From positions 25,596 to 89,595 of the forward strand of contig JAAWQR010000002.1 in assembly GCA_022800625.1 (NCBI GenBank): a stretch of DNA of 64,000 nucleotides. The letters run 5' to 3'. Shown piece after piece: positions 27,958-62,628 of the stretch. The notes under the pieces were generated by a model, which was not told the origin of the DNA, did not search any database, and was given only the letters and a program-made list of their open reading frames with translations. Made by a program: the position numbers and the translations under genes. This DNA comes from Clostridiales bacterium. Lineage in GTDB: Bacteria > Bacillota > Clostridia > Oscillospirales > CAG-272. The stretch's first letter is position 1. Every line of letters begins with the position of its first letter.

Positions 27958-27958
27958 T

Positions 27959-40800: not shown

Positions 40801-42264
40801 GTGGAAAAATGGACCAGAAAAGAATACGGCACATGGGATGAAGCGTTCCGCGGTCTTACACCGCGAATCCGTCAAAGCTCTGTCAGGATTGCATCATATA
40901 CACGAGAGCTGTTTGTGCAGGCGTGCGCCGACTCATTTGCCAAGGGAACGCATGACGGAAGTGCAAGGATCCGCGGTAAATATGCCGATCTTGCATATAA
41001 ATGCGGCATGTATCACCAGCTCGGAAAGGCTCTTGTGCCGCCAGAATATCAGATTTTTCAGAGCGACTTTACAGATGAAGAAAAATCTGTTTATTGGAAG
41101 TATATGACGGACGGACGGACGCTTGTCTCCATTCTTCAGGAAAGAGGCGCTGCCGCTAAAAGAAAGCGAGGCATGCCTGACGGAGAAGAAGCGCCGACTG
41201 ATAATATTACATGGCTGATGCTCCGCGAAGCGTGTGAACAGCATATGGAACGCTGGGACGGAACAGGCCTTCCCGAAGGCAGGCGCGGAGACGAAATCAG
41301 CCCTGTTGCACAGATCGTCGGACTTGCGCATGAGCTTGACAGACTTGCATCCGAAACAAAGTCAGAAAAGCCGTTTGACGAAGCGCTTGAAAAGCTGAAA
41401 GGCGAGGTCGGTGCGGCTTGGTCGCCTGCTCTTATAGATGTGCTGACTCACGCTAAGGAAGCGTGCCGCGGAGTATACAAAAAATATATTCATTATACGA
41501 TGACGCTTCCCGAAACGATACCGCTTGTTGAAAAGCGAGAGGACAGACCTATGGGACTTAAATACCGTCCTATGGTAAGCGATAAAAACGGCAGCGTATC
41601 CTATTACGAAGCGATTCCATGGTACGGCGGAATTGCCGATAATCCCGATGAAACGGAGAGCACGGAAGACGTTTCGGAACTGCTCAAAAAAAGCGAGCTT
41701 ATTTCGGATATATCTGTTTACTTCATGTATGAGGCTGCGGACGCAGTTCTGAGACTTGAAAACTGCAAGCTTGACGTCAGCGGAATTATCTTAAATGTGC
41801 CTGCGAATTTTTATTCCGAGAGCGAGCAGCTTTTCAGAATAAATCAAGTTTTTGAAGATGAAGGAATATCAAAGGACAAGCTTCTGTTTACTATTCCTGA
41901 GTCGGTTTTACTGAGTGCTGACAGAGAAACAGCTGAGAATGTCATTGAATATCTGAACGCCGGCTGCAAGTTGGTTCTTGACGGATATCACCCGGATAAG
42001 ATCAGCACAGAGCAGCTGCGTGAGCTTGGATTCAGTATGATTCGCATGTCTCCCGAGCTTAATCTTAAATCTGAAACTGCGGTTCAAATAAAATCTCTCC
42101 GTGAGAGCGGCTTTACGCTTATCGGCGGAGCTGCCGATTCGCAAAACTCGCTTGCCTGGCAGCTTGCCTGCGGAGTTGTTGCCGTCGGCGGACCTGTAGT
42201 GGGCGCGCTCGCCTGTGAAAACGAAATGATTCGCGACGGGCTTGTAAGAGAGCAGACAATATGA
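40801..42264 (+). CDS. degenerate HD-GYP-like plus degenerate EAL-like protein (candidate c-di-GMP sensor)
   Basis: MERWDGTGLPEGRRGDEISPVAQIVGLAHELD matches the HHExxDGSGYP region, but the upstream HD is HQ (YHQLGK). C-terminal YRPMV...YYEAIPW, ILNVPANF, FTIPES and VLDGYHPD follow EAL-domain spacing with catalytic residues replaced. GTG start 8 nt after AAGGAG. Confidence 0.6.
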   Translation: MEKWTRKEYGTWDEAFRGLTPRIRQSSVRIASYTRELFVQACADSFAKGTHDGSARIRGKYADLAYKCGMYHQLGKALVPPEYQIFQSDFTDEEKSVYWKYMTDGRTLVSILQERGAAAKRKRGMPDGEEAPTDNITWLMLREACEQHMERWDGTGLPEGRRGDEISPVAQIVGLAHELDRLASETKSEKPFDEALEKLKGEVGAAWSPALIDVLTHAKEACRGVYKKYIHYTMTLPETIPLVEKREDRPMGLKYRPMVSDKNGSVSYYEAIPWYGGIADNPDETESTEDVSELLKKSELISDISVYFMYEAADAVLRLENCKLDVSGIILNVPANFYSESEQLFRINQVFEDEGISKDKLLFTIPESVLLSADRETAENVIEYLNAGCKLVLDGYHPDKISTEQLRELGFSMIRMSPELNLKSETAVQIKSLRESGFTLIGGAADSQNSLAWQLACGVVAVGGPVVGALACENEMIRDGLVREQTI

Positions 42265-43343: not shown

Positions 43344-43541
43344 ACGGCATAAATCGAAAGGGGAAAGCTAACCGGGAACCCGTTTAAAGGCTTCTCCTTT
43401 CGGTGAAGCCTTTAATAAATATTAAATTCATATATTTTCCGAAGGAACGGAAGTCATTCCATTCCGGACCTGCGGTTTATATAGCTCCGGCGGGAGCAAA
43501 AAAACGTAAAACAGAAAATTCCGAAAGGGGAAAAACAAACA

Positions 43542-45437
43542 ATGACAAACAACGCTAAAAAGCGGGAAGTCAAGATGCCCGGCGGACTTAGACAGAAGCT
43601 TACAGCTGCAATTGCAATGCTTCTTGTTTCCGCTATTATGCTTGTTTCCGCAACCTACGCATGGTTCACGCTGTCAACAGCGCCCGAAGTCAAGGGTATT
43701 TCGACAAGCGTCGGCGCAAACGGAAGCCTTGAAATGGCGCTTCTGACAAAGACAGTCGGAGATATCAAATCAGGCGTCGGCGATTCATCAGCCGTTCAGG
43801 ATGTTAAGCTTGCAAACCGTACATGGGGTAATCTTGTGGATCTTAGTGACGAAGCATACGGTTTCAACGCTCTTACACTGAATCCTGCCCGTCTGATGTT
43901 CAACGAAGACGGTACCGCTCTTAAAGATGCAAATATGCTTCTCGGTACTGCCGACTACGGTTCAGACGGACGTGTATCTGCAATTTCTTCGGCCCGCAGC
44001 ATGATATCTGTTGCAGGTTCCTATGCCGGAGAAGGAGATTTATACGGTGTACGTGCTATCGGTGACAACTCAGCTCTCAGTCCTGAGGAAGTTGCTGTTA
44101 ACAAAGCAAAGATAACCTTCAATTCATCTCTCGAAACTGCAAAGAGCGGAGCTAAATCTGTTCTTGATATGTACGGCGAACAGCTTGCTAATATTGCAGT
44201 AAGACACGGTACTGCTGATGCAGGCACTGATACTTATACAAAGGCAGAAGTTAATGCAATCAGAGACGTTATTACAGCTCTTGAAGCTGAGGCTGCAAAT
44301 ATTGAAACCGTACTTAAGGCTGAAGCTCTTGTAAGAGCTACAGTTGTTGACGGCAGCGCCGATCATACTCTTGAGGAGCAAGTTGTAACGAATGATAAGC
44401 TTACAGCGTTAACTACAGCGATTGCAACAGCTAAGGCTGCAATTCCGGCTGCTGAAAAAGACAGTTACACATGGACTGAAATTCAGCCGGCTCTTTCGGC
44501 AATAATTGATCCCACAGGCGTTACAGTAAACGGCACAACGATATCGGATCTCAAAGATAATCTGATCGGTGAAGACGGACAAATAAATTCCGACTATGCT
44601 TTGGAAATTGCTACAAATCCTTCAGTTGAGACATCAGAGGGAATTTTGGCGTCTGTTGCAGAGTTTACCGGAAACTATAAGTCCATCGGATTTAGTCTTC
44701 CTGTTACGGCTATGGGAATGAGCGTAACTCTGAAAAATGCTACATTGGCTGCAACCACAACAGCAAATCCGGCAGTTCTCATGGGTATTGCGGCAGACAT
44801 AGTTAACCTTAAGTATGAAGGCGAAACATCAAGCGACAATGCAGTTATCTCTGATAACTACGGTTACGCTGTTGACCTTGCGTTCCGTTCAAATACTAAT
44901 ACCAATCTCCAGCTTCAGACAGACGGTGTACAACGTATTTACAACGATGCGACTGTTGTTAACCCTGACACGCAGGGCGGCGGAAGCAAAATGACATTTA
45001 CATCAACTGTTCTTACAGAGGCTCAGATGAAGGCACTCATGGGCGCTATCCGCGTTGTATTCACTGTTCCCGGAGGCACTGAAGTATACGGTGTAGCTAC
45101 TCTTGATCTTGCAGCTCCTGCTGAAGGAACCGAGCCTACATACAGCTTTACAACAACAGGCAGCACTGTTACAGGTACAGCTAACCTTGTAATGAGCAAG
45201 TATACAGTAGATGCAGACGGAAAGATTGTAGTTGCTGGCAAGGCTGATAATGATACTATTACAACCCTTAATCAGGGCGAGGCTAAAGGCGTTACAGCTA
45301 TTGTTTACCTTGACGGTGATATAGTTGATAACTCAATGGTTGCTAATGCGTCCAACTCTATGGCAGGCAGTCTCAACCTTCAGTTCAGCAGCAGCGAACA
45401 GTTGACTCCTATGAATTATACACCTCTTAAAAAATAA
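43542..45437 (+). CDS. TasA/camelysin-like SipW-cognate secreted protein, candidate major fibre subunit (631 aa)
   Basis: N-terminus ...LLVSAIMLVSATYAWFTLSTAPEVKGISTSVGANGSLEMAL. Cys-free mature part rich in A/T/G/S/N. C-terminal IVYLDGDIVDNSMVANASNSMAGSLNLQF. GGGGA RBS. Strong hairpin downstream. Confidence 0.6.
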   Translation: MTNNAKKREVKMPGGLRQKLTAAIAMLLVSAIMLVSATYAWFTLSTAPEVKGISTSVGANGSLEMALLTKTVGDIKSGVGDSSAVQDVKLANRTWGNLVDLSDEAYGFNALTLNPARLMFNEDGTALKDANMLLGTADYGSDGRVSAISSARSMISVAGSYAGEGDLYGVRAIGDNSALSPEEVAVNKAKITFNSSLETAKSGAKSVLDMYGEQLANIAVRHGTADAGTDTYTKAEVNAIRDVITALEAEAANIETVLKAEALVRATVVDGSADHTLEEQVVTNDKLTALTTAIATAKAAIPAAEKDSYTWTEIQPALSAIIDPTGVTVNGTTISDLKDNLIGEDGQINSDYALEIATNPSVETSEGILASVAEFTGNYKSIGFSLPVTAMGMSVTLKNATLAATTTANPAVLMGIAADIVNLKYEGETSSDNAVISDNYGYAVDLAFRSNTNTNLQLQTDGVQRIYNDATVVNPDTQGGGSKMTFTSTVLTEAQMKALMGAIRVVFTVPGGTEVYGVATLDLAAPAEGTEPTYSFTTTGSTVTGTANLVMSKYTVDADGKIVVAGKADNDTITTLNQGEAKGVTAIVYLDGDIVDNSMVANASNSMAGSLNLQFSSSEQLTPMNYTPLKK

Positions 45438-45452
45438 TTTTCGTTTATTTTC

Positions 45453-45478
45453 CGCCGAGACGGTTTTCCGTCTCGGCG
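45453..45478 (+). terminator. 11-bp GC-rich hairpin after the candidate major subunit gene (no adjacent U-tract)
   Basis: cgccgagacgg-tttt-ccgtctcggcg. A 300-bp spacer follows before the next gene. Confidence 0.4.
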
Positions 45479-45745
45479 TGGGGACGGTTTTCCGTTTCCC
45501 TCGGAAAATTTCCGCAGATAAAATCCCATGGAACTCTTTCTGTGGAGACCATTCCGCGGAAACCTTTGAAGAACTGTATTTTCGGAGCGGGAATGAGGCC
45601 TCGAAAACGGCGAATTATCGCAGCAATTTTTTAAGGGACGGAATTTCGGTACTATCAATTCCGCCCTTTATGAAAGGGTTGCGGGCACGGCTTATGGGCG
45701 GTGCCTATTCCCCTTTACAGACTATCCTATGAAAGGATGGAGTAA

Positions 45746-46735
45746 TTGAACATAATAACGGCAGATAAAAAACAAAGCCGCCGTACTTTTCTTTATCTTT
45801 GGATACTTATTGCTCTGCTTGCTCTGCTTGTCTGCGCTACATACACGTGGTTTTCTCTGAGCACGCGTCCGCGTGTCAGCAGTATGGAGATGTATATTTC
45901 CTCAGGCGCGGGACTTGAACTTGCAAAAACTTATGACGCTCCTGACAGCGAATGGGGGCAGGAGATAGACGGAGGCTCCATTATCGGTGAAAATGTATCG
46001 CTGAAGCCTGCCACATGGTCGGAGTCGAAACAAAAGCTGATAGCAGTAAATTATGGTACTGACGGCAGAATCACCGATGTGTCATCTGAGCTTGAAGACA
46101 CGGCGGACGCAAACCGTCCCGACGGATATTATGCTCTCGGAACATTCTATGCAAGGACGGATCAAAGCTGTAAGGTTTCCCTTGCGGAAGCGGTTGCGGT
46201 AAACGGAGGTGAAAATGCTTCCGGCACTTATGTTATAGGCACGCCTGTATGGAACATTGAGACGATACTTCACGACGACGGCGGCAGCGGTGCGGAAAGC
46301 GCGGTAAGATTCGGCTTTAAGCTAACACAGATAAATCCTGCGACAGGCGAAGATATATCGGATTCGGTTATGTTTATATACGAACCGAACAGCGATAAGC
46401 ATACAGGCGGTGAAACAGGTTATATTCCCACGCCGAGCATCGACGGCACTGATACGCTCTCTCCGAGACTGATAACACAAAGCGCGTCGCTCTGGACGGA
46501 CACATATCCTGTGCAGAGGGAAGTTATCTTACATACTCCCGGCAAATTTGATTCAACCCCGATGCTTTTTTCTGTGAAAGCCGGTGAGATATATAAAATA
46601 CAGCTTTATATATGGCTTGAGGGGCAGGACGCGGACTGTACGAACGATATAAGGGATGCAATGATCTTAGCAAATATCGGATTCAAAACAGATTACAGCG
46701 GTCAGACAGGTCTTGAAGAGATTCCGCAGAACTGA
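45746..46735 (+). CDS. TasA-like SipW-cognate secreted protein (329 aa)
   Basis: LLALLVCATYTWFSLSTRPRVSSMEMYISSGAGLELA N-terminus. C-terminal LYIWLEGQDADCTNDIRDAMILANIGF. TTG start after GGATGGAG. Confidence 0.6.
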   Translation: MNIITADKKQSRRTFLYLWILIALLALLVCATYTWFSLSTRPRVSSMEMYISSGAGLELAKTYDAPDSEWGQEIDGGSIIGENVSLKPATWSESKQKLIAVNYGTDGRITDVSSELEDTADANRPDGYYALGTFYARTDQSCKVSLAEAVAVNGGENASGTYVIGTPVWNIETILHDDGGSGAESAVRFGFKLTQINPATGEDISDSVMFIYEPNSDKHTGGETGYIPTPSIDGTDTLSPRLITQSASLWTDTYPVQREVILHTPGKFDSTPMLFSVKAGEIYKIQLYIWLEGQDADCTNDIRDAMILANIGFKTDYSGQTGLEEIPQN

Positions 46736-46795
46736 AAACGTAAAATTGAAAGTAAAAATTAAGAAAATATAAAAATGATAGAGAGGAAGTTTATT

Positions 46796-47917
46796 ATGAG
46801 GAAAAGTCAGGTTGATATTCCCGTAGCTGAAGGCTCAGAAGCTGTTTTGACGAAGCCGAAAAAAGGGAAAAAAATTGCGAGCATCGTTATAAATGTAGTT
46901 TTAATAATTGCTATTGTGCTTGCAGCCATGTGTACTTATGTTTCATATGTCAGCACATCGGGAAGCGGGGTTCCCAGTATCTTCGGCGCACGTATCTTTT
47001 CAATTCAGACAAAATCAATGTATCCTACGCTTAATTCCGGAGACTTGATTTTTGATGTCAGAGTTAAAGATGCGTCGGAACTTCAGGTTGATGATATTAT
47101 TACGTACTGGACTGTAATTGACGGAGAGCGTGTACTCAATACGCATAGAATCAACGAAATATATGACGGCGGAGGATACCGTATTTTTCAAACAAAAGGT
47201 GATGCTAACACTCTGGAGGACTCACTGACTGTTCATGAGTCGGAGATCGTCGGCCGTTATACCGGTCGCAAGATCAACGGACTCGGAAAGGTTTTCGACT
47301 ATTTACAGACAAGCACGGGATTTATGATAGTTGTGGTAGTTCCCGTAGCAATATTCTTCCTTTTTCACCTGATTCAGTTCTTCCGTGTTCTGTTTGAGTA
47401 TCAGAATGTTAAGAATAAACTTCTTTATGAGCAGGAGCGCGGAAAGACGGAAGACTTGGTTGCAGATGAAAAGCGTGCGAACGAGGAAGCAAAGCAGAAG
47501 GAGAGAGAACGTCTTGAGGCTGAGCTTCGCGAACAGCTTAAAGAAGAAATACTTAAATCAGGTGCGCTTGATTTAAGCGGGGAAACAAAGACGATTTCTG
47601 AAAAAGATAGTAAAGCAGACGATGCAGAAGCTAAAGTAAAGGCGGAAGCTGAAGAACGCGCAAAGCTTGAAGTCGAGCTTCGCGAAAAGATTATGGCTGA
47701 AGAAGCTGCAAAGGCAGAGGCTGCTGCAAAGGCAAAAGCCGAAGAAGAAGCTAAGGCTGAAGAACGCGCAAGGCTTGAAGCCGAGCTTCGTGAAAAGATC
47801 AAAGCGGAGATGGCAGCAGAAGCTGCGTCAGCCGCAAAGACTGAAGCTGTTTCCGATGACTCAGAATCAGCCGCAGAAAACGGCGAGTTTCAGTCAGTCG
47901 AGACGGACAAAGAATAA
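46796..47917 (+). CDS. sipW: SipW-type (S26B, ER/archaeal-type) signal peptidase I with a cytoplasmic E/A/K-rich tail of about 170 aa
   Basis: SIQTKSMYPTLNSGDLIF (catalytic Ser), NTHRINEI (His), TKGDANTLED. A second TM FMIVVVVPVAIFFLFHLIQFF, then three ER..LE.ELRE repeats. Confidence 0.8.
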   Translation: MRKSQVDIPVAEGSEAVLTKPKKGKKIASIVINVVLIIAIVLAAMCTYVSYVSTSGSGVPSIFGARIFSIQTKSMYPTLNSGDLIFDVRVKDASELQVDDIITYWTVIDGERVLNTHRINEIYDGGGYRIFQTKGDANTLEDSLTVHESEIVGRYTGRKINGLGKVFDYLQTSTGFMIVVVVPVAIFFLFHLIQFFRVLFEYQNVKNKLLYEQERGKTEDLVADEKRANEEAKQKERERLEAELREQLKEEILKSGALDLSGETKTISEKDSKADDAEAKVKAEAEERAKLEVELREKIMAEEAAKAEAAAKAKAEEEAKAEERARLEAELREKIKAEMAAEAASAAKTEAVSDDSESAAENGEFQSVETDKE

Positions 47918-47954
47918 GTTAAACACGATTTTTGGTATGATCCGATAATACGGC

Positions 47955-49529
47955 ATGGAGGAAAACATGGATCACTTTTTAAAGTATTTCTTTCAGGATA
48001 TAGGCAGGGTGTTCCGTGCTTTTCTTGAGATTCTCAGCTCGTTTTTCAACTTTTTGAATTATCTGCTCAATTTTCCGATGCGTCTTGAGCTTATCCGTGA
48101 ATATAACGGTGAATTTTCCGTCATGGAATGGGTGATGCTTGTTATTACCGAGATCGTATTGATCGCGCTGATTGTGTTGCTTATTTTAGGACTTTTGAGA
48201 CTGTTCAGAAAATTGTTCAGATTCAGGGTTCCGGTCAAAAAGTATGATGAACTTACACGTCAGGTGAGAAATCTGCAAAGAGATCTGCTTCGCGCAAACT
48301 ACGAAAAGGATCGGCTTCTTAATATGAAAGTCGCTGAGCTTGGCGGAAATCCCGAACTGCCCGAGGAAGAGGGCGAGGACGGTGATAAGCCGGATCTTCC
48401 CGAGAGTAACAGAAATACCTTTGAGTCTCCGTGCATAGCGCCGGGGGACAGCAGATTCTTCAGGCTGACAACGGTTGATAATTTCTACAAAACCGATTAT
48501 ATTCCGCCGATATATGATTCTGACTTTGATCTTGCGGGTATTTGTGAGCAGTTCAGGCTGTTTGCAGCTTCAGAACTCGGACTTTACTATGATCTTGATA
48601 TGATGCGTTACTTTATTGCATCGATGGGCGCTGCGCGGATCATCATTTTGCAGGGTATTTCAGGTACGGGTAAAACATCGCTTCCGTATGCGTTCGGTAA
48701 ATTTGTCGGAAAGGATACTACTGTCGTATCCGTGCAGCCTGCATGGCGTGAACGTACTGAGCTTTACGGTTATTACAATGAATTTACCAAAAAATACTCG
48801 GAAACAGACTTTTTGCGTGCGATTTATGAGGCTAATTATTACAGAGATCCGCATATCGTTATTCTTGATGAGATGAATATTGCTCGAGTCGAATATTATT
48901 TTGCCGAAATGCTTTCCATTCTTGAAATGCCGAGGCAGGATGAGTGGAAGGTAAATATCGTGTCTTCTCTGTGGGCTAACGATCCATGCCTTATAAACGA
49001 CGGCGCTGTACAGATACCGAACAATGTCTGGTTTGTAGGAACGATCAATAACGACGACTCAACCTTTGCTGTATCCGACAAGGTGTATGACCGTGCTATT
49101 CCGATTGACCTAGACGCAAGAGCTGAAGCGTTTGAGTGTGAACACACTTCAGCTGTCAGCATTTCAACGGATCGCTTGGCAAAGCTGTTTGAAAAGGCAA
49201 AAGAAGAGTATACTGTATCCGATGAAATGTGGAAAAAGCTTGATGAGCTTGACGCTTATCTTGTTAAAAATTTCAAACTCACTTTCGGTAACCGTATAAA
49301 TAAACAGATCGGCGACTTTATTCCGTGCCTTATCGCCTGCGGCGGTACTGAGATACAGGGCGCTGACTTTATGGTGGCAAAAAAAGTGCTCAGAAAATTT
49401 GAGTCTCTTTCTCTCGGTTTTATGAAAGATGAGTTGACAAAATTCAACGCATATCTTGATAAGCTGTTCGGTAAAAACAGTATGCCGATATGTAAGGAAT
49501 ACATAGATTATCTAAAGAAAAACAACTAA
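47955..49529 (+). CDS. membrane-tethered McrB-like AAA+ NTPase
   Basis: N-terminal TM WVMLVITEIVLIALIVLLILGLL and a coiled coil. Then LQGISGTGKTSLPYAFGKF (Walker A), SVQPAWRERTELYGYYN, HIVILDEMNIARVEYYFAEMLSILE (Walker B) and WFVGTINNDDSTFAVSDKVYDRA, as in the McrB/AAA_5 family. The start may be ATG 47967. Confidence 0.7.
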   Translation: MEENMDHFLKYFFQDIGRVFRAFLEILSSFFNFLNYLLNFPMRLELIREYNGEFSVMEWVMLVITEIVLIALIVLLILGLLRLFRKLFRFRVPVKKYDELTRQVRNLQRDLLRANYEKDRLLNMKVAELGGNPELPEEEGEDGDKPDLPESNRNTFESPCIAPGDSRFFRLTTVDNFYKTDYIPPIYDSDFDLAGICEQFRLFAASELGLYYDLDMMRYFIASMGAARIIILQGISGTGKTSLPYAFGKFVGKDTTVVSVQPAWRERTELYGYYNEFTKKYSETDFLRAIYEANYYRDPHIVILDEMNIARVEYYFAEMLSILEMPRQDEWKVNIVSSLWANDPCLINDGAVQIPNNVWFVGTINNDDSTFAVSDKVYDRAIPIDLDARAEAFECEHTSAVSISTDRLAKLFEKAKEEYTVSDEMWKKLDELDAYLVKNFKLTFGNRINKQIGDFIPCLIACGGTEIQGADFMVAKKVLRKFESLSLGFMKDELTKFNAYLDKLFGKNSMPICKEYIDYLKKNN

Positions 49530-49550
49530 CAGTCGAAGGGAGGAGTCATA

Positions 49551-53501: not shown

Positions 53502-55374
53502 TGAACTGAATTCATTCCGAAAAAGAATATACCTGAAGCTTGCAATGGCAATATCCCTCGGAGTTTTGATAGTGGCTCTAATATTTGCTGTAAGCATCGC
53601 ATGGTATACCAATGTAGTGCAGACAAGCGGACTGAGCTTTGAGGCGTCTGTTTGGGGATTTAAAGGAAATGTGGAGATTCAGGATGAAAGCATTATAGGT
53701 GCGCGTCCCGGAAAAAACGGCACTGTCGGTATGACTTTTGAAAATTCGGGAGATGAGATTGTTTATGCAGGCGTTGAAGTGAGCAAAGAGCTTATGAGCC
53801 GCGATCTACAAAAACGTATATATTTTTATATTGATTCTTCAAAGGGAATCAATGAAGAAACTGTTGAAAAAGTTTATCTCGGCGGAAGCGATAATTATTC
53901 TTATTTGCTGATGCCTAAGGATACATTATCTTTGACTGATGAAGTACATGACAATGCTCCCGTAAAATGGGAGTGGGTGTACGATGTTTTGGGTTATTAC
54001 GTTAAAGGCACGGTTACTGAGGGAGATGACGGAAAATTCAATCTTTCATCAGATGCCGAATATATAATGCCTGTAAAATATGACTATGACAAGGCTACAT
54101 TTGACGATGACGGATTTTTAGAAACCGTTGACGGAGAAAAAACGTCGGCGGAATTTATAGCTGAGATTTCCTCAAAAGACGGATATAAGGGAACGGTTGA
54201 CACGAACGCGGCACGCGGAAATTATTATGCAGTTGATGTTGAGGAGAACACGGGCATTTGGCTTTGTCTGCTTACGAAGCCTGAGATAGAATATGAGACT
54301 GTTATTGATACGGCATTAGGAAGTAAAAATCCCGATGAGGAGCTTTCAAAATTTACAGCACGTCTTACCGTGACAGCTGTAAACGGAGATTTGGTTCAGA
54401 ACAATATCGGTACTGCAGAAGATTTGAAAGAGGCGCTGTCGGCGGGAGACGAGTATATAAAGCTGACAAATTCAGTTACTCTTGACAGTTATATTGAGCT
54501 TCCGAGAGGAAAATCATCAGTTCTTGATCTTAACGGGAATGTGCTTACGGCGTCATATGTTGCAATGGTGACATGGGAAGGCTCTTCTCTTACTGTTGTA
54601 AACGGCGATATAGAGTGTATAGGGGAAAAAGTGCCGGCATTTCAGATCGTAGGAAGCAAACTTGAATTGGTGAATGTCGGTGTTAAATCCAAGTGGCAAG
54701 GTTTGCTTATTGCAGATTATGTCGGATCGGGAGCTACATCTGAGGTAAGATTGTCCGGGTGCAAAATTGACGCTGAATATTGTGCACTTACACTTTGCGG
54801 AAACGGAACGCTTTCTGAGCAGAAAACTCATGTTTATATTAAGGACAGCGAAATCACAAGTTCCAATTTAGCGATAAGCGGTAGCGGAACGGTTACGGAA
54901 AACGGACAATGGGGTACCGATGTCTATATTTTGAACAGCAAAGTTAACGGTGGTGCGGCAGCGATATATCAACCGCAGCAAAAAAGCTCTCTAACAGTTT
55001 CGGGAAGTGACATTACGGGAGGCGTAGGAATTGCCGTAAAGGGCGGAGATATATTGATAAAAGGCGGCAGTATTGTAAAGGGAACTGATGAAAAAATGCC
55101 TGCGGACTTTACATCAGGCGGATTTACACAGACAGGAGACGGACTTTACATCGAAACAAATTATGACTGGGATCGCAGCGTTCAAATCGACGGAGGAAGC
55201 AGAATAATCAGTGAAAAATCCGAGGCAATCGAAGTTTATAAGGCAGACGACGCGAGAACCTCACTTTCTGTTCGGGAAGGTTTTTACAGCTCAGATGTTT
55301 CAAGTCTGATCGATGTAACTCAATATTCCTGCGCCCTCGGTGAAGATGGTTTTTATGAAGTAGTTAAAAAATAA
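53461..55374 (+). CDS. SipW-cognate protein with C-terminal parallel-beta-helix-like domain (637 aa)
   Basis: LIVALIFAVSIAWYTNVVQTSGLSFEASVWG N-terminus. The C-terminal half has G-rich turn repeats and SSVLDLNGNVLTA, similar to YIDLNGHNLDGN in the 2524-aa protein. Overlaps the sipW-2 3' end by 41 nt. Confidence 0.55.
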   Translation: MRILKRNQKEKQNNELNSFRKRIYLKLAMAISLGVLIVALIFAVSIAWYTNVVQTSGLSFEASVWGFKGNVEIQDESIIGARPGKNGTVGMTFENSGDEIVYAGVEVSKELMSRDLQKRIYFYIDSSKGINEETVEKVYLGGSDNYSYLLMPKDTLSLTDEVHDNAPVKWEWVYDVLGYYVKGTVTEGDDGKFNLSSDAEYIMPVKYDYDKATFDDDGFLETVDGEKTSAEFIAEISSKDGYKGTVDTNAARGNYYAVDVEENTGIWLCLLTKPEIEYETVIDTALGSKNPDEELSKFTARLTVTAVNGDLVQNNIGTAEDLKEALSAGDEYIKLTNSVTLDSYIELPRGKSSVLDLNGNVLTASYVAMVTWEGSSLTVVNGDIECIGEKVPAFQIVGSKLELVNVGVKSKWQGLLIADYVGSGATSEVRLSGCKIDAEYCALTLCGNGTLSEQKTHVYIKDSEITSSNLAISGSGTVTENGQWGTDVYILNSKVNGGAAAIYQPQQKSSLTVSGSDITGGVGIAVKGGDILIKGGSIVKGTDEKMPADFTSGGFTQTGDGLYIETNYDWDRSVQIDGGSRIISEKSEAIEVYKADDARTSLSVREGFYSSDVSSLIDVTQYSCALGEDGFYEVVKK

Positions 55375-55436: not shown

Positions 55437-56021
55437 ATGATAAAAAATAATAAGTTTTTGTACGCTGCGCTGCGCCCTATGATAATAATTACAAGCTTTT
55501 TGATATGCGCGGTTCTGATTGTGGGTATTACACTCAGCAGATATGAAACAACAATAAAAAAAAGTGTAAATTTCCGCTCAGAAGAGATGGGAATGCTTGA
55601 TATCAAATCAGACAAAGGATGGACAGTAGCGGATGGTACTTTGAGTATGGATTTTGAGGTTACAAATTCTGCATGTAGTCCGGACGGTGTTGAATTTGTT
55701 CTGTATTTAGCCGCATCGCCTGCGAGCGAGGCTGAATCAGCGTCGGTTATTCTTATTATCGGAGAGACGGAATATACAGCTGTCTCTGAGGAGATTGATC
55801 CTGAGAGCAGCTTGTACCGTGCGTTTGGGTATGGATACGTATACCGATTTTACAGCAGCAGTGAAGAAAAATTACAGCAGATGTTTGAGCTTAATAAAAA
55901 ATCAGAAGAAAATGAAGAAATATTGACTTCTGAAAAAATGACTGTAAAAATAAGCGGAAAAACAGGAGATAAAGAAATAGATTCAGTCGGACTCATAAAG
56001 CTTTATGCAGTTCTTGTCTGA
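55437..56021 (+). CDS. small SipW-cognate-like secreted protein (194 aa), candidate minor subunit
   Basis: IIITSFLICAVLIVGITLSRYETTIKKSVNF N-terminus. GGGGGA RBS. Confidence 0.45.
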   Translation: MIKNNKFLYAALRPMIIITSFLICAVLIVGITLSRYETTIKKSVNFRSEEMGMLDIKSDKGWTVADGTLSMDFEVTNSACSPDGVEFVLYLAASPASEAESASVILIIGETEYTAVSEEIDPESSLYRAFGYGYVYRFYSSSEEKLQQMFELNKKSEENEEILTSEKMTVKISGKTGDKEIDSVGLIKLYAVLV

Positions 56022-56060
56022 CAATAACAGCAGAGAATAAGTTAAGAAGGAGGGGAGCGC

Positions 56061-57104
56061 TTGAAAAGAGAAAAAATAAGGATAGGTCTGATACTCGGCT
56101 GCATGTCGGCTTTGTTGATATGCGGAAGTCTTGCCGTTGGACAGACGAGATCCAGATATGTTTCATCGGCAAGCGCGCCGTTCGGGTATATAATTACTGC
56201 TGATTCCGCAGAAACGATAGGCGATATCATTATAAAGGAAGAACAGACGGCAAGTGAGGACGTGACAAAAGAAAACTCTGATACCGTGAATGACAGCCAT
56301 GAAACTATAGCTGTGACAGGAAGCGAAGAATCGGATATACCGAAAACCGACGAAGAGAGCGGTAATACTTCTGAACCGGTTGAACCAAAAATTACAGACC
56401 CGACTTTGATTCCCGAATTTATGACAGACTTTTTCGGCGACGGTCCGCTGGCGTTAAAGCTTGATAAATCTCGCGGAGCACTAAAACTTAAATTTATGAG
56501 CGGGGGCGAAGTTGCGAAGCCCTTAACAGACGTCAGATACAGTATTGACCGAGGAAAAACATGGTACAAACTTGAGAACATTTCCGAATTTACATTAAAA
56601 GATATGAGTACGGACGGTTATATTATTTTTGACTTCAATGCGACAGGTGAAATATCAGAAAACGTAATTCGGATTTATGCCGAGGACGGAAGCGGAAATA
56701 TGTGCGAGATCGAGGCAGAAAAGAAAGACGGCTTGTGCATTGAATATGACGCGAATCTTCCATGGCTTATAGATGCGTCGGGTTCAGGCACGGCGGATAA
56801 GACAGTTACGGGATATAATATATCAAACTGTGAAATGACAAAAAAACTTGAATATATGGAAAAGACAGACAGCGGATACGGATTTAAAACAGTCGACGGC
56901 GAAGCTTTAAAAGGACTTATTAAATCTGAAGTTTCAACAGACGGAGAAGCATTCAGAGACACATTTAATGTGACAGACCTGGAAAGCGGACAAACTGCAG
57001 TTGTACCGCCCGGTCAGTACCGAATGACATACACATGGAATTTCGGTGATATTACTGTGTACGAAACGGTGATTCCGTTTTTTATAAATTATTCGATGAA
57101 ATAA
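56061..57104 (+). CDS. secreted protein (347 aa) with SRY-type N-terminus, candidate minor subunit
   Basis: GLILGCMSALLICGSLAVGQTRSRYVSSASAPFG. TTG start after GGAGGGGAG. Confidence 0.45.
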   Translation: MKREKIRIGLILGCMSALLICGSLAVGQTRSRYVSSASAPFGYIITADSAETIGDIIIKEEQTASEDVTKENSDTVNDSHETIAVTGSEESDIPKTDEESGNTSEPVEPKITDPTLIPEFMTDFFGDGPLALKLDKSRGALKLKFMSGGEVAKPLTDVRYSIDRGKTWYKLENISEFTLKDMSTDGYIIFDFNATGEISENVIRIYAEDGSGNMCEIEAEKKDGLCIEYDANLPWLIDASGSGTADKTVTGYNISNCEMTKKLEYMEKTDSGYGFKTVDGEALKGLIKSEVSTDGEAFRDTFNVTDLESGQTAVVPPGQYRMTYTWNFGDITVYETVIPFFINYSMK

Positions 57105-57144
57105 TATATCTGTTAAGCAGCAGTGATTAAGGAGATATAAAGCA

Positions 57145-60100
57145 GTGAAAAAAGATACACGGGAAAGAATAAATTTATATGAAGAGCGCTTGCCGAAAGT
57201 AAAGGAGAAGGCGCTCGGAGCAGCCGCCATGCTTGTTGTTGCGGGCGTTATGGCTGTAAGCGCAACATTTGCGTGGGTTACTCTGTCAGCAGCTCCGGAA
57301 GCAGGAAAAATAAGTACGACGGTATCGGCTAACGGAAACCTTGAGATCGCACTGGCTGATCTTGACGGAGCCGAACCCGACGTCAGCGCAGTTGGGGATT
57401 CTACGGCAGCGGGAAAGAAGCTGACTGAAGCGAATCTCACATGGGGAAACCTTGTCAATTTATCGGATGACAGCTATGGACTGTCAAACCTGACTTTGCG
57501 CCCGGCTCGTTTGAATACGGAAGCGCTGCGTAAGAAACCTTTGCGCGGAGTTAAATACGGAACTGACGGAAGAATTACGGACTATGACTCAAGCTATGCT
57601 TTCAGTATATGGGATACCAAGGAAGGCAGATTTGTTGTAAAAGAAGGCGATGTATTCGGCGTCAGAGGTATATCTTCCGTTACATATGAAGCTTCAAGCG
57701 AAGAGTGGCAATTTGTCAATACTCTTGTTGAAAATTATGATTCTGCCATAACAAAGGCTCAGCAGAAGTATTCGGAGCTTGTAAACAGTTCCGAGAGTCA
57801 GGGATTGGTTCAGGCGCTGCTTGAAAAGTATATTGATATAAAAGTCAATACTGTTCCTATGGCTAATAAAGACTGCTCGGATGTTTTGGAGCAAATGTAT
57901 AATCTACTCGTTGATTATGAGAAGTGCATGAACGCTGAGGGTGAAGCTTATCTGCGGTTGATTGATTTGCAGATGTATCAAAAATGGGGCATGGCTGAAT
58001 ATGGAAATCATACCATAAAATCAGTTGATGAGCTTAGACAGAACAGCGCTGCACAATTGACAGGTAAAAATATTGTGTTGGACGGTGTAACACGTAAAGA
58101 GAAGTATTGGGGTACTGCACCTGAACGTACCACTAACTATGGATATAACCAATACAGAACCGACTATAATAATATCGACACAGATGTTGCCCGCCTGAAA
58201 AAATTGATCGATGACGGCGGAGTAGCAACTTGGGCAGATCTGAATGCTATAATTAACAGAGTTGTTGATATCAATACAGCAACTCTTGTAGTCGGTGACA
58301 AAACGAAAGCAGTTGCTTCTATCGGTATTAGCGACGGCTTGACTTTAAACAGTGAGAGAAATATAGTCCATCCGGCTAAGCTTAATAACGGTTATCTTAA
58401 AAATTTTGAACAGCGAGTCGGAGGAAGCGGTCGCTTCAACTATAGTACAACAGTTTCGGCTACAGCTATGGGAATTACGGTTCCGGTAAAGACAATGGTA
58501 ACAACAAGTGCTGAAGCTGTGACTACGGAGCATTCCGAGTCAAAGGTTTACGGTATGGGTAACGATTTGGCTTATACCAATAAACTTATAGAGTCAGGAC
58601 TCGAGGGAGGCTCGCTTGCTGCGGCTGAGGATACTTACGGTATGGCAATTGACATGTGGGTCCGCACAAATGCGCCCGACGCTGCGCTGATCCTTGAAGG
58701 AAAAGCCGATATCGAAACTGAGATTGTCAAAGTGACCGGAACGGTAAACGGTAAGACAGTTGAGCTATACACAACTACTGTTAGGGGAGCAGGAAAGACA
58801 GAGCAGGCAAGCGTACCTCTTTATCATAAACCGGGAGACGATTTGACATGGTATGAATACGGAACACGCGATTTCGCGGGAACTGAAAATAACAGTCCGT
58901 ATACTTTACCTGATGGAAAGATACCTGCTCCCACGATGAAAACAGATGACGAAACCGGCGCTGAAGTTCAGGAACAGCTTGAAATTACAGTGGGCGGGGA
59001 AAAGATAATGGTAGACGCATACTACATTATCGTAGATAAAACTGTATATGAAGAGCGTGAGGTTTCTCTTTACAAAACAGACAGCGGTGAGTTCCGCGGA
59101 TATGATGAAGCATCCGGCAATACTTACGATATTACTCTGACCGAAGCAGAAAAGGCTGCGGTTAAAGAAAAAACTAAACAAGTTGAGCGAGTTACCGGAT
59201 TTGAAGGAGAAAACAGAGTTTGGAACGAATCTGATTCTGACGCATTACTTCTTAAAGATAATAACACAACGCAGGGTGTGGGAAGCAGTTATGTGTTCTA
59301 TTCCTACACTCCGACGGATCAGGCAAATACTCTTAAGCTTCTCGGAAGCATGAAAGTTGCATTTGTAGATGAGTTCGGAGACTTGCTTGCGATCGCGGGA
59401 ATGGATACGGATCATGCATATGCAGAGATTGGTAAGGTCACAGTTCCGCTTGTAATCGAATCAGGCATTAACGCAGGCGAGGATGAAGACGGAAATGCCA
59501 TATACGGAATTACAAAGCTTCGTCAGAATGAAGCATCTATGATTACATCTATTCTGTATATCGACGGTGAAAAGATTACAAACGATCAGGTTCTTGCCGT
59601 AAACGATATTCAGGGACAGCTCAATATTCAATTCGGAACGAACTGTGATCTTGACGCAGCGACAAACGAGCCTCTTGCAATTAAAGAGCGTACAGTCAGT
59701 GCAACAATATCAAAGAACAGCTTTACAGCTTCGGATAATAACCGAAATGCAATGGTGACGGTTACAGTGGAAGGCGACGAACCGAATATAGTTGAAGCGA
59801 ACTTTATGCGTCAGATCAGTAAAACGCAGGGTACCCGTATGGATACACTGAGCTTTACAAATGAAAATGGCAGTTGGACTGCTGAGGCAAACTTCGGAGC
59901 ACCCGGAAAGTATGTGCTTCGGTCGGTAAAACTCAACGGAATAGATATAGACCTGAAAGAACCGATAGAAGTAACGGTTGACGGATTCGGGTTGTCGCGG
60001 CTTGATGTTAAGTCGATATCAGCCGATGCAACAGCGTTTGGAGATACGCACATATTTACGGCAAAGAGCTCTGCCGATTCGGTTGAGGGAGAGATAAATC

Positions 60101-62628
60101 TTACCTTAACGGGAGAATGGGCAGGAAATGTTAAGTCGCTGAAAGCTCAGCTTGTAGATGTAAACGACGCATCCAATACCGTAACGGTTGATATGAAAGA
60201 GGAGGGCAACGGCGGTGCTTGGAGCGGAATTGCAGCATTCACACAAAGCCGTAAATATAAGCTTGCATATCTGATTGCGGACGGAGAATACTTTGATATT
60301 GACGAGCTTGGCGCAAGACAAGGAACAAATTTTGCTTGGACGGCTGATATACATCTCGGACTGCGGGCTGCGGTAAGTATAGAGAGACGAAATCAGGAAT
60401 TCCTGTTTGAGGGGGAAGCACGTTCTATTCCGGTAAAAGTACAAATCCTTGACAACAGCGGAAACTTGATGCCGTATGAGAATAATGTTAAGCTTGTATA
60501 TCAAAAACGCGGCTCGGCGCAGGAAATTTCTGCGGAAGGTCTTGTATGGAATGCGTTCAGTGAATATTATGAAGGCGGAAACTTCCCGATAACGCAAGCA
60601 GGCGTATACAGCTTCTCATATCTTGAGGCAGACGGCAGCCGTATCAATGTTGCGTCATCTGCTCCGATGATACGCGCAATGTCCCTCAATCCTCCGGAAT
60701 TTACAAACAGTTATAATACTTCCGCATATCAGTTTGCGCCTGATGCAGACGCTGTGATGTATGCACAGCTTGCATATGCGACAGCAGTTGAAGTTGAAGC
60801 ATATGCTGTAAATACAAGAGGAGCGCAGGCAGGCACAGGAGAATGGGTAGCGGGAATACCTGTAGACACAAACGATCCGAATCTGCCGTCAGATTCCGCT
60901 GTATTCAGCTTTATGCCCAAAAACGGAAGCACACAGGACGGAGACTGGGAAATCAGAGAATTGCGCTTTACAGGCGTAACAACTGAGGACGGACATACAT
61001 ATGACGGTGAAGAAAACGGCGGATACTATCCGGTCAAGCTGAGTAAGGATGAATATGTAAAATCATCTATCCGTACAAGTGTGAATGTTGAATTAACTAA
61101 TCCGGACGAAACTGCGTTCAGCGGAAAGTTTATGGATGCTCATACGATCGGCGGCTTAAAGGTTATTGTTTCAGATGCTTACCGAGAAGAACTTCGTACA
61201 GATGCGGCAAAAGTCGGCGGAGTGAATGTAACCTACACCCATAAGGCGGGCACGGCGTCAGAGTACGGTCATTATACACTTGCTGACGGAAGTGAAGCAG
61301 ATGGCGAATCGGTTGTTGCTAATTTGCCTATGTCTGACAATAAAACGGCGGTGCAAAACGGTTCACCGGAATTCAGAACTGCCGGTGAATATGACGGAGT
61401 TCTCACTTTCAGTATATCGGCAAACGAAAAGAATTATAATTATTCTACAAATTCGTCAGATGATCCTGAAATTAAGAATCCTGTAAATTATGTTGATGTT
61501 AAGCAGATAAAGATATCGTCTGAGAAGCCGATGCTTAAGATAACGTCAGTATCTCCTGCACCTAGTACAACTTTCCAGATTAACCCAAATGGCTTAAGCG
61601 ATCCCAAATGGTTAAATAGTCATAATTTTTTAAGTCCTGATGGTTTATATGCAAGATTGTCTTGTAATGCAAAAAGCACATCATCGACCTCTTGGTCAAA
61701 AGCAACAGTTAGATTGATTGATGCCGGAACCAACTATACAAGCGCATCGTTTACAGTTAAAGCACAATTTGAAGGTGAAACTGATTATTCTGCGACATAT
61801 TCCTATACACCTAATACAATTGAAATTACTAAAGAAATTGGTGGAGGAGGAGAACTTGGAATTTTTGGCATTAAACATTATGCACGCGCAGGATATCAAA
61901 AATTTGATGATATTGAAATGAGCTATGACGGTGATACATACAAAGTTGAATTGAGTGATAGACTTGAGATCTATGGTTACGATACAAAGATTCCTTCATT
62001 CCAATATAGTGCTGGAGATTATAGTAGCAACGGAGTTGTAGTGCCTTCGGAAACGGTTGAATTTCCATACTATGATCAGAATAAGAATGTGATAACGCTT
62101 GGATCGGTAGATGATGCTCATAAGACTCTTAATGACACATATGAAGAAGCCGGAGATTTGGACAGTACAAGAACACAAACTACAGAAAGCACTGAAACGC
62201 TTTACTATGAAGGCAGCGAGGGAAGCGGATGTAACAAAAAAACCGTTTATTTCCCATATACTGTCAAGACTGTTATAGAAAAAACACCGGCTGTCAAGAA
62301 CACATATAATGCTACCTACAATTTTGCCGGATGGAAAATTATGCAGAAGACTCAGCAAACAGGAGCAGAGACACAGTATGGCGGAGGACGTACATATACC
62401 GTTGGTACTAAACTTACATTTGCAACAAGTGCTCAGCAGGACTATACAGCAACTCCTGTTTATAATGTAGGTGACAAGGAATTTGTTTCTTCGACTGAGC
62501 AGAACTACATAGTAACAAAAGTAACGGTAACAGCCGGCACTAAAACGGAAACAAAGCCAAGTGGAACAAAAAAGGACAGCGCTGCTGATATCACGAGTTT
62601 AGCTGGGACAACGGAAAGCTGGGAGTAA
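57145..62628 (+). CDS. 1827-aa protein: TasA-like SipW-cognate module fused to a C-terminal extension of about 1000 aa (candidate tip adhesin)
   Basis: AMLVVAGVMAVSATFAWVTLSAAPEAGKISTTVSANGNLEIALAD N-terminus. The family C-terminal motif SILYIDGEKITNDQVLAVNDIQGQLNIQF sits near residue 800. No LPXTG and no C-terminal TM. GTG start after AAGGAG. Confidence 0.6.
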   Translation: MKKDTRERINLYEERLPKVKEKALGAAAMLVVAGVMAVSATFAWVTLSAAPEAGKISTTVSANGNLEIALADLDGAEPDVSAVGDSTAAGKKLTEANLTWGNLVNLSDDSYGLSNLTLRPARLNTEALRKKPLRGVKYGTDGRITDYDSSYAFSIWDTKEGRFVVKEGDVFGVRGISSVTYEASSEEWQFVNTLVENYDSAITKAQQKYSELVNSSESQGLVQALLEKYIDIKVNTVPMANKDCSDVLEQMYNLLVDYEKCMNAEGEAYLRLIDLQMYQKWGMAEYGNHTIKSVDELRQNSAAQLTGKNIVLDGVTRKEKYWGTAPERTTNYGYNQYRTDYNNIDTDVARLKKLIDDGGVATWADLNAIINRVVDINTATLVVGDKTKAVASIGISDGLTLNSERNIVHPAKLNNGYLKNFEQRVGGSGRFNYSTTVSATAMGITVPVKTMVTTSAEAVTTEHSESKVYGMGNDLAYTNKLIESGLEGGSLAAAEDTYGMAIDMWVRTNAPDAALILEGKADIETEIVKVTGTVNGKTVELYTTTVRGAGKTEQASVPLYHKPGDDLTWYEYGTRDFAGTENNSPYTLPDGKIPAPTMKTDDETGAEVQEQLEITVGGEKIMVDAYYIIVDKTVYEEREVSLYKTDSGEFRGYDEASGNTYDITLTEAEKAAVKEKTKQVERVTGFEGENRVWNESDSDALLLKDNNTTQGVGSSYVFYSYTPTDQANTLKLLGSMKVAFVDEFGDLLAIAGMDTDHAYAEIGKVTVPLVIESGINAGEDEDGNAIYGITKLRQNEASMITSILYIDGEKITNDQVLAVNDIQGQLNIQFGTNCDLDAATNEPLAIKERTVSATISKNSFTASDNNRNAMVTVTVEGDEPNIVEANFMRQISKTQGTRMDTLSFTNENGSWTAEANFGAPGKYVLRSVKLNGIDIDLKEPIEVTVDGFGLSRLDVKSISADATAFGDTHIFTAKSSADSVEGEINLTLTGEWAGNVKSLKAQLVDVNDASNTVTVDMKEEGNGGAWSGIAAFTQSRKYKLAYLIADGEYFDIDELGARQGTNFAWTADIHLGLRAAVSIERRNQEFLFEGEARSIPVKVQILDNSGNLMPYENNVKLVYQKRGSAQEISAEGLVWNAFSEYYEGGNFPITQAGVYSFSYLEADGSRINVASSAPMIRAMSLNPPEFTNSYNTSAYQFAPDADAVMYAQLAYATAVEVEAYAVNTRGAQAGTGEWVAGIPVDTNDPNLPSDSAVFSFMPKNGSTQDGDWEIRELRFTGVTTEDGHTYDGEENGGYYPVKLSKDEYVKSSIRTSVNVELTNPDETAFSGKFMDAHTIGGLKVIVSDAYREELRTDAAKVGGVNVTYTHKAGTASEYGHYTLADGSEADGESVVANLPMSDNKTAVQNGSPEFRTAGEYDGVLTFSISANEKNYNYSTNSSDDPEIKNPVNYVDVKQIKISSEKPMLKITSVSPAPSTTFQINPNGLSDPKWLNSHNFLSPDGLYARLSCNAKSTSSTSWSKATVRLIDAGTNYTSASFTVKAQFEGETDYSATYSYTPNTIEITKEIGGGGELGIFGIKHYARAGYQKFDDIEMSYDGDTYKVELSDRLEIYGYDTKIPSFQYSAGDYSSNGVVVPSETVEFPYYDQNKNVITLGSVDDAHKTLNDTYEEAGDLDSTRTQTTESTETLYYEGSEGSGCNKKTVYFPYTVKTVIEKTPAVKNTYNATYNFAGWKIMQKTQQTGAETQYGGGRTYTVGTKLTFATSAQQDYTATPVYNVGDKEFVSSTEQNYIVTKVTVTAGTKTETKPSGTKKDSAADITSLAGTTESWE

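Follow-up and report, generated by a model that had tools for sequence, protein, structure and literature searches.

An unbroken array of genes on a 64,000-nucleotide stretch of contig JAAWQR010000002.1 from a Clostridiales bacterium (the window, as the whole of that stretch is called here) most likely serves to build a multi-protein fibre on the cell surface, with the help of a dedicated pair of signal peptidases and of a motor, anchored in the membrane, that derives from a restriction enzyme. What we observe directly is the gene content of the array, the short motifs of its secreted proteins, the type of its peptidases together with their conserved boxes, the paralogy among its products, a predicted fold rich in beta-strands, and the synteny and distribution of the locus. 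On balance we lean, at somewhat better than even chances, towards a surface fibre of Gram-positive gut anaerobes whose subunits are processed by SipW-type peptidases, are probably joined by strand exchange and are accompanied by a module derived from McrBC. Dependence on SipW and a role in a fibre, both of which had been proposed in an earlier reading of the same DNA from its letters and open reading frames (the sequence-only reading), are plausible in the light of what follows.

Organisation, conservation and distribution of the array

The genes of the array all lie on the plus strand and form an operon-like locus of about 31 kb, 31799-62628 (Table 1). The sequence-only reading had placed the locus at 42261-62628; the array that it saw is real, but synteny by tblastn shows that the conserved unit begins upstream of 42261, at 31799, so that genes U1, U2 and U3 are part of the same unit. 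Alignments of orthologues were built gene by gene from 84 related loci, and synteny was counted by tblastn among the 45 loci of at least 20 kb, which stand for about 45 species-level genomes. Across these long loci the order U1-U2-U3-A-B-C-D-E-F-G-H-I is kept almost universally: B, C, D, E and F are each found in all 45, A and U3 in 43 each, H in 42, G in 41 and I in 37, with U1 and U2 each lying upstream in 39. The most conserved gene is E, at 62-74% identity across loci.

Some loci (L005, L014, L018) depart from this layout and are without G-H-I, F running directly into L-like genes; among these and two others (L062, L077) there are architectures with a single SipW and no G-H-I block, and architectures with a G- or B-like gene of 757-1088 amino acids (aa) at the position of G. 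Two B genes are present in many loci. Further afield, three distant C-like proteins (24-28% identity) are encoded in partly recovered compact loci (L085, L090, L091) of the same gene order. The fullest of them, L085, carries the whole core, namely an HD_5 gene followed by A-like, C-like, E-like (50% identity), F-like and SipW genes, and 3' of SipW it encodes two small proteins with the motifs TIAWYT and SYAWY. On the 4.4-kb contig of L090, which likewise opens with an HD_5 gene, A-like and C-like genes are visible, and the short contig of L091 holds a C-like gene, a 248-aa and a 512-aa gene without assignment, and a DUF2357 gene. Because the distant compact loci retain these parts, we take the core of the system to consist of an HD-GYP protein, A, the motif-bearing subunits, SipW, E and F.

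The family is large and nameless. At E <= 1e-3 the relatives of C amount to at least 2636 cluster representatives (50% identity); 988 relatives in 90% clusters are all unnamed proteins, as are the 1738 relatives of B returned by the homologue search. Among GTDB species representatives, at least 288 carry a gene for a relative of C; of these 288 carriers the best 80 are, with few exceptions, assemblies of uncultured organisms from gut or rumen, labelled mostly Oscillospiraceae, Angelakisella, Faecousia, Vescimonas or Ruminococcus. A minority of the metagenome-assembled genomes with close relatives bear the labels Lachnospiraceae, Erysipelotrichaceae or Bacteroidaceae.

Table 1. Genes of the array and the gene that follows it, with positions in the window
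Gene	Position	Strand	Description
U1	31799..39373	+	2524-aa giant secreted protein; ordinary signal peptide, dockerin-like C-terminus; first gene of array
U2	39389..40612	+	407-aa secreted protein; Thr/Pro-rich linker, weak FIVAR match, C-terminal transmembrane anchor
U3	40801..42264	+	Cytoplasmic HD-GYP (HD_5) + EAL protein; candidate input for cyclic diguanylate (c-di-GMP)
A	42261..43343	+	Bitopic membrane paralogue; basic conserved cytoplasmic N-terminus; transmembrane helix 83-101 without cleavage motif
B	43542..45437	+	631-aa candidate major subunit; invariant SATYAWFTLSTAPEV...GANGSLE motif; beta domain, helical insertion at about 181-300
C	45746..46735	+	329-aa compact subunit; TTG start after AAGGATGGAG; motif ATYTWFSLS; C-terminus with WLEGQDADC
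D	46775..47917	+	SipW-type signal peptidase 1; S81/H124/D143; second transmembrane helix; 176-aa cytoplasmic tail
E	47955..49529	+	Membrane-anchored McrB-type AAA+ GTPase; transmembrane helix 60-78; Walker A 234, Walker B 301
F	49551..51386	+	McrC-like partner; DUF2357 N-terminal domain; 237-aa tail
G	51452..52723	+	423-aa subunit paralogue; motif STYAWLNIS
H	52701..53501	+	SipW-type signal peptidase 2; S67/H110/D130
I	53461..55374	+	637 aa; signal-anchor; invariant A-W-Y-T-N; mature part without detectable kinship to B, C, G
J	55437..56021	+	Small, 194 aa; signal-anchor; family motif [AT]-Y-[AG]-R-Y
K	56061..57104	+	347 aa; N-terminal hydrophobic helix; variable accessory gene
L	57145..62628	+	Giant, 1827 aa; residues 1-844 a B-like module, motif SATFAWVTLSAAPE
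M	62709..63380	+	Short 223-aa Lgt-like membrane protein; Pfam LGT 6e-24, under NCBIfam cut-offs

Motif-bearing proteins and their signal peptidases

Seven proteins of the array (B, C, G, I, J, K and L) begin with basic residues followed by one N-terminal hydrophobic helix each, and in B, C, G, I and L the end of that helix carries the motif [ST]-x-[AT]-W. The sequence-only reading had singled out just this combination; the peptides that it quoted are all present in the open reading frames it named, and the orthologue sets now confirm the pattern, the short motif being near-invariant. Thus Y39, A40, W41, S45, T46, P48 and E49 are invariant in the B family (63 sequences), the C family keeps Y33 without exception and W35 in 82 of its 83 sequences, A-W is invariant in the G family (58 sequences), and A47, W48 and N51 are so in the I family (54 sequences). 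Since these positions hardly vary while the motif-bearing proteins share just 30-55% identity with their orthologues over the whole length, the motif is not a product of chance. In B, conservation extends for about 25 residues past the predicted cut, including TLSTAPE..GI.T..GANG.LE, a good deal farther than cleavage alone would call for, and the new N-terminus may for that reason have a structural role. The smaller genes are less constant: J is poorly conserved and was detected in 13 of the 45 long loci, and almost no orthologues of K were detected in the related loci, some of which run I-J-L.

The enzymes that would act on this motif are encoded among its bearers. Both D and H, which had been read as two interleaved SipW-type peptidases, pass TIGR02228, the model of ER/archaeal-type (ER, endoplasmic reticulum) signal peptidases, scoring 83.8 and 78.5 bits, respectively (cut-off 51.85), and retain Ser, His and Asp boxes (SM.P, THR, GDAN) that are conserved in 78 and 61 orthologues and that, going by published work on SipW and Sec11, we take to be catalytic. 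On the Bacillus SipW equivalog model NF046067 they reach 100.7 and 77.8 bits, under the cut-off of 190; by these scores, D and H are the same type of enzyme as SipW and not the Bacillus orthologue. The gene sipW1 (D) lies directly upstream of E in every one of the 45 long loci.

The register of the predicted cut is that of TasA. In Bacillus subtilis TasA the site is G-T-W-A↓A-F-N-D, as follows from the mature N-terminus in PDB entry 8AUR, whose chain starts at A28; the site predicted here, T-Y-A↓W-F-T-L, falls in the same register and fits the -3/-1 rule, and hhalign sets ATYAWF opposite GTWAAF of TasA. Cleavage before Trp agrees with the -3 and -1 residues of B, G, I and J, and in three of these families the two residues are both small and invariant (T and A in B, S/T and A in G, T/S and A in I). 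The mature proteins are accordingly predicted to start at W41 (B), W35 (C), W29 (G), W48 (I) and W44 (L).

The long cytoplasmic tail of SipW1 (residues 205-380 of D) and that of F (residues 375-611) consist to 62-68% of E, K, R and A, and both are missing from L085, which suggests a joint function.

Some further observations concern C and the region 3' of B. A public gene call on an identical contig (locus L087) starts C at Met47 (45884) and yields a protein of 283 aa that loses both signal-anchor and motif; the longer start is supported by the sequence that precedes the TTG at 45746 (Table 1) and by an N-terminus conserved in 36 homologues, and automated annotation may systematically truncate the C family. 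Within that family H176, E213-P214, H219, D295, D297 and C298 are invariant and N215 is near-invariant, and an acidic motif, [WY]-L-[ED]-G-x-D-x-D, is common to A, B, C and G; together, these residues could form a metal site (Ca2+ or Zn2+). Directly after the stop codon of B, two tandem stem-loops (45453-45499, plus strand) are built on a repeated GACGG-TTTT-CCGTC unit and fold with a minimum free energy of -34.6 kcal/mol (z -5.2). A consensus scan paired 45468-45474 with 45481-45487 and then TTTTCCGTTT, a second folding of the same interval, and alternative, mutually exclusive pairings are therefore possible. The hairpin that the sequence-only reading had placed after its candidate major subunit is thus a stable structure, but it has no U tract and a comparable element was found in just 8 of 73 other loci scanned; as it is neither a canonical terminator nor conserved, we rejected it as a marker of the major subunit.

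Paralogy, predicted fold and likeness to known filaments

Kinship among the array proteins was assessed by profile-profile comparison (hhalign) with the signal regions removed, together with BLAST. C and G are related over their full length (probability 99.6%; 99.6-99.8% with the untrimmed profiles counted in), B and C over the N-terminal part (93.7%), B and G over the C-terminal part (86.9%), and A and C over the C-terminal 90 columns around WLEG.D.DC (89.7%; 88.9-89.7% with the untrimmed profiles), the C-terminal half of the outer domain of A being homologous to that of C (motif WLEGDDxD); L joins B by BLAST at 35% identity over 291 aa (3.5e-31), with a second block of 31% over the C-terminal part. 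Judged by these comparisons, A, B, C, G and L form one family of five genes. I and J reach at most 1.1% with every other family. Of the "at least seven paralogs" put forward earlier, A, B, C, G and L are indeed related, but signal-anchor and short motif are all that I, J and K have in common with them. The descriptions of A as a membrane-anchored paralogue and of L as a giant protein were borne out: A has an uncleaved transmembrane helix and its 89.7% with C, and the N-terminal module of L is B-like.

Known families are of little help with these proteins. All 16 proteins of Table 1 were scanned with Pfam, NCBIfam and PADLOC, and for A, B, C, G, I, J, K and L these scans returned nothing; searches of PDB sequences with B, L and family profiles (A1, A2, A5) found nothing either, and the last ~980 aa of L show no known domains in Pfam or PDB sequence searches, L being a candidate adhesin or tip protein. 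A match of I to CFA/I fimbrial subunit B (3F84, E 1.3e-4) was rejected because the chain is a tandem-duplicated construct of which single stretches score an independent E value (i-E) of 0.85 and overlap the transmembrane helix.

[quoted passage not shown] The invariant segment of B, residues 35-61, is the least confident of its model (pLDDT 30-48), as expected of a strand that has no place in the monomer.

That the predicted helices run through the motif in both models lends some weight to a different account, in which the helices stay uncleaved, the proteins are type II membrane-tethered envelope components, of a lattice or sheath at the membrane surface for example, and the SipW paralogues act on other substrates or as scaffolds. 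A is clearly an uncleaved anchor, and the long, conserved cytoplasmic extension of SipW1 points beyond catalysis; however, the catalytic boxes are intact in both peptidases across some 60-78 orthologues, B, G and I have small invariant residues at -3 and -1, right next to their invariant Trp, and the register matches that of TasA, and we consider this account quite improbable.

Monomer AlphaFold models of B and C were also compared with the PDB by Foldseek. The hits are mostly jelly-roll and beta-sandwich proteins, with lectin and viral jelly-rolls in the C list. Rank 1 for C is the Sulfolobus acidocaldarius thread (7pnb; E 8.5e-3, probability 0.84), and the archaeal pilin AbpA (7ueg) appears weakly, at rank 5 for C and rank 9 for B; the top matches of the B model (a megabody/HopQ entry and FlgK) were set aside, as they reflect a helical insertion joined to a beta domain and not homology. 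In AbpA bundling pili (7UEG, PMC9245690) and in threads (7PNB), beta-sandwich subunits donate an N-terminal strand freed by signal-peptidase cleavage. These archaeal filaments are the best, though weak, structural neighbours of C and B, at E values from 8.5e-3 to 8.9e-2 and TM-scores of at most 0.34 that do not establish homology; their subunits are of about 180 aa, are processed by a general peptidase and come without McrBC-like genes, unlike the proteins described here. AbpA is itself kin to TasA at the profile-profile level only, an example of the extent to which the fold can drift apart.

Comparison with bacterial fibres yields both likenesses and differences. Like the array, the tapA-sipW-tasA operon of B. 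subtilis encodes a dedicated ER-type signal peptidase among its substrates and an accessory anchoring or nucleating protein; TasA shares with the subunits described here the cleavage register T-aromatic-A↓x-F, a beta-rich secreted chain and a G-x-L-[DE] soon past the cut (GTLDL in TasA; GSLEM, GLELA and GNLEI here). That operon is 3 kb long, whereas the present locus, at ~31 kb, encodes five paralogues along with three motif-bearing proteins that are unrelated, the longest of these eight having 1827 aa; its further products are two peptidases, a giant protein with a dockerin-like end, an HD-GYP/EAL protein and a McrB/McrC-like pair. The sipW-bsaA-bsaB-bsaC operon of Clostridium perfringens, whose fibres are reported to be membrane-anchored, resembles the array in its clostridial SipW, in more than one TasA-like subunit and in an extra large secreted protein (10.1101/2024.11.04.621531; PMC7395162). 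BsaA and BsaB, however, are recognisable TasA relatives of ~200 aa, with a link between their secretion and genes for type IV pili, and the system has neither a McrBC-like module nor a YAWF motif family. Sortase-dependent and type IV pili are excluded by the missing motifs, a C-terminal LPxTG and the N-terminal prepilin site before the helix (G↓F-T-L-x-E) occurring in none of the 16 proteins of Table 1; Pfam scans, moreover, turned up no sortase, prepilin peptidase or PilB-type ATPase.

A number of results weigh against a SipW-processed fibre made by strand exchange. With a cut in this register, the -1 residue of C would be Thr, and few signal peptidases would be expected to accept it. None of A, B, C, G, I, J, K and L matches Peptidase_M73 (PF12389) at E <= 0.1, no window protein matches the SipW-cognate signal model TIGR04088 at E <= 1, and among 60 diverse relatives there is one weak match to each (Peptidase_M73 at E 0.0098, below threshold; TIGR04088 at E 0.0039). 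The model of C places its first mature strand (44-53) inside its own fold, which is compatible with self-complementation and gives no evidence for exchange. Foldseek returned no match at E <= 1e-3 for either model, and the TasA entries (5OF1, 8AUR) are in the top 50 of neither. I, J and K, finally, are not homologous to the other subunits. Aligned by hhalign, the family profile and TasA reach a probability of 2.4%, with the signal peptide and motif aligned only. Membership in the TasA/CalY/camelysin family, which the sequence-only reading had suggested, is accordingly not shown and finds no support in the Peptidase_M73, hhalign or Foldseek results; of the likeness to a SipW-cognate signal, the register stands but the profile match does not; and for the mature domains a mostly or partly beta structure is predicted, but the models of B and C have no significant neighbour in the PDB.

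The more serious competitor is a sorting system in which SipW-type peptidases process surface or secreted proteins (adhesins, enzymes, envelope proteins) that do not polymerise and have only a sorting signal in common, much as in exosortase and rhombosortase pairs. Such a system would sit well with I, J and K, which resemble B, C and G in signal-anchor and short motif only, with the large, multidomain L and I, with invariant His, Glu, Asp and Cys residues of the C family as candidates for a metal-binding or active site, and with the lack of significant likeness to any known pilin in Foldseek. Against it stand the ~25 conserved residues past the cut in B, more than a cleavage site needs, the existence of A as an uncleaved membrane paralogue with just the C-terminal half of the fold, and the fact that the best structural neighbours, weak as they are, are strand-exchange filaments. 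We judge a mere sorting system unlikely, at perhaps one chance in five, and retain the fibre as the preferred interpretation.

A McrBC-like pair within the array

The core of E matches AAA_5 in Pfam and aligns with Escherichia coli McrB in the PDB (6HZ4) at 2.8e-4, an alignment that takes in both Walker motifs and the Asn signature; in 70 orthologues Walker A, Walker B and INNDD (NxD+D) are invariant. After its transmembrane helix, the N-terminus of E has a conserved segment, KKYDE..QV..LQ.DL.RANYEKD.LL, that looks like a coiled coil by eye and has no FtsB or DivIC match in Pfam even at E <= 10. F scores 24.9 bits for DUF2357 (cut-off 23.3), has no PDB relative and no nuclease detectable by Pfam, and ends in 237 aa that are 68% E, R, K and A. 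DUF2357 is the N-terminal domain of McrC that activates McrB (PMC11090510). In E. coli it plugs and activates the McrB hexamer, and F has that domain; unlike E. coli McrBC, however, E carries a membrane anchor in place of the DNA-reading domain, F is without a detectable PD-(D/E)xK nuclease, the signature is NxD+D as opposed to NxxD, and the context consists of secreted proteins instead of restriction or defence genes.

A link of this kind already has a name. Bell et al. (2024, eLife) introduced CoCoPALM ("pilus assembly linked to McrBC") in two sentences, deferring the analysis, for a pair whose GTPase belongs to the NxD clade (NxD and then D or E) and is joined to a transmembrane and coiled-coil part resembling FtsB; both proteins bear coiled coils, and signal-peptidase genes lie adjacent (PMC11090510). 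The authors thus connected this McrB clade with signal peptidases and pilus assembly independently, which speaks for the fibre. The array shares with their description an NxD-clade McrB-type GTPase with an N-terminal transmembrane helix and helical segment, a DUF2357 McrC homologue with a long charged helical region, and adjacent signal-peptidase genes. By these sequence features the locus fits the description of that named and uncharacterised class. Literature searches found no later paper on CoCoPALM; the paper itself is without subunit families, motif, second peptidase, HD-GYP/EAL gene, membrane-anchored paralogue or taxonomic range. The earlier verdict that the system is undescribed is therefore close to right but not wholly so, the association of McrB/McrC with signal peptidases having been named, though with no account of the subunits.

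A McrBC-like pair could also be an anti-phage or conflict system that merely sits inside a surface-protein locus or travels with it. E matches McrB and, at 1e-42, the PADLOC candidate-defence model PDC-M26A, a match that counts on the same side as the contrary results listed above; F has DUF2357, and the related NxD-clade CoCoNuTs are predicted defence systems. No paper in our literature search mentions "PDC-M26", and for that reason the model may include or border on a non-defence clade to which E belongs. The pair is found in all 45 long loci, fixed between sipW1 and G, and its two genes are the most conserved; E- and F-like genes or a DUF2357 gene recur in L085 and L091; E has a transmembrane anchor and not a DNA-binding domain, F is without a detectable nuclease, and Pfam and PADLOC scans reveal no methyltransferase or other defence gene within the array. 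The fixed position in every long locus, and in those distant loci (L085, L091) whose length suffices to reveal it, argues that E and F are part of the machine, and we consider a passenger defence system highly improbable. A homologue search with E gave at least 8000 matches, of which the best 120 are all at least 69% identical; the matches listed being close orthologues, it offered no view of more distant contexts.

Proposed mechanism and its significance

In the fibre that we favour, B, C, G and L, members of one family, and I and J, with unrelated mature domains, would be inserted by the Sec pathway as signal-anchors with the N-terminus inside, I, J and K being accessory substrates. D and H would then cut between [ST]-x-[AT] and the invariant Trp that follows it, in the register of SipW and TasA. 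The N-terminus so freed (W-F-T-L-S-T-A-P-E-V-x-G-I...), the most conserved part of the protein, would be donated as a strand to the beta-sandwich of a neighbour, thereby giving rise to a polymer. A, which would combine the acceptor half of the fold with its uncleaved transmembrane helix, may tether the fibre to the membrane, and L, with some 980 residues beyond its B-like module, may act as adhesin or cap. The membrane-anchored McrB-type GTPase E and the nuclease-less McrC-like activator F, whose association with the array is observed, would form its obligatory cytoplasmic part, and they may couple GTP hydrolysis, possibly together with sensing of c-di-GMP through U3, to the assembly or release of subunits. 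This last role is a guess, because known SipW fibres need no nucleoside triphosphatase, a circumstance that tells against the fibre interpretation as well.

Taken one step further, the array might represent a new class of Gram-positive filament in abundant, uncultured gut and rumen Oscillospirales, made from a hitherto unannotated superfamily of SipW-cleaved, strand-exchanging beta-sandwich proteins, with biogenesis through a membrane-anchored McrB-type GTPase and a nuclease-less McrC, a restriction-enzyme motor exapted to assemble or extrude pili, and under the control of c-di-GMP; in this full form we regard the proposal as possible and well short of probable. Its interest lies in the comparison with known SipW fibres (TasA, BsaA) and archaeal bundling pili, which are simple and need no energy source: a conserved system of ~13-16 genes that adds a McrBC-derived GTPase would be a new route to surface filaments in Gram-positive bacteria, and a clear case of a defence-type motor recruited for cell-surface biogenesis. 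The subunit family, moreover, is large and without any annotation, and its closest relatives are nearly all found in uncultured gut and rumen Clostridia, whose mechanisms of adhesion and aggregation are essentially unknown. For CoCoPALM, the name gains a concrete list of parts, a substrate motif, a distribution and predicted cleavage sites.

Flanking genes and other features of the window

Of the three genes that open the conserved unit, U1 has a Dockerin_1 match that is sub-threshold (18 bits), Dockerin_1 being on record for its orthologue in L001, and a cohesin in the N-terminus of U2 has no Pfam support. U3 matches HD_5 (6.7e-12) and EAL (5.3e-12) in Pfam; with HQ at the HD motif and EAI at the EAL motif, U3 may sense c-di-GMP, possibly as a degenerate protein, rather than act as a phosphodiesterase, whereas the orthologue consensus keeps HxERxDGSGYP. 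At the other end, M adjoins the array in 2 of the 45 long loci and a relative lies at the array end in a few loci (L011, L018, L027), its membership of the system being doubtful.

Elsewhere in the window the G+C content rises from ~0.30-0.34 to 0.42-0.47 near 31-32 kb, directly 3' of a tyrosine recombinase gene (30129-30980, plus strand; Phage_integrase 4.9e-24), and a large serine recombinase is encoded at 14022-15701 (plus strand); one half of the window may be a mobile insertion, or the contig a mosaic. On the minus strand, an agr-like quorum-sensing cassette (20898-24082) comprises AgrB (5.8e-39), a LytTR response regulator and a GHKL histidine kinase, and the interval 25123-29797 encodes an MBOAT (DltB-like) acyltransferase, a protein with an FkbH N-terminal domain and, in an adjoining open reading frame, a 333-aa product without family match, genes that could together make up a cassette for the acylation of a surface polymer.

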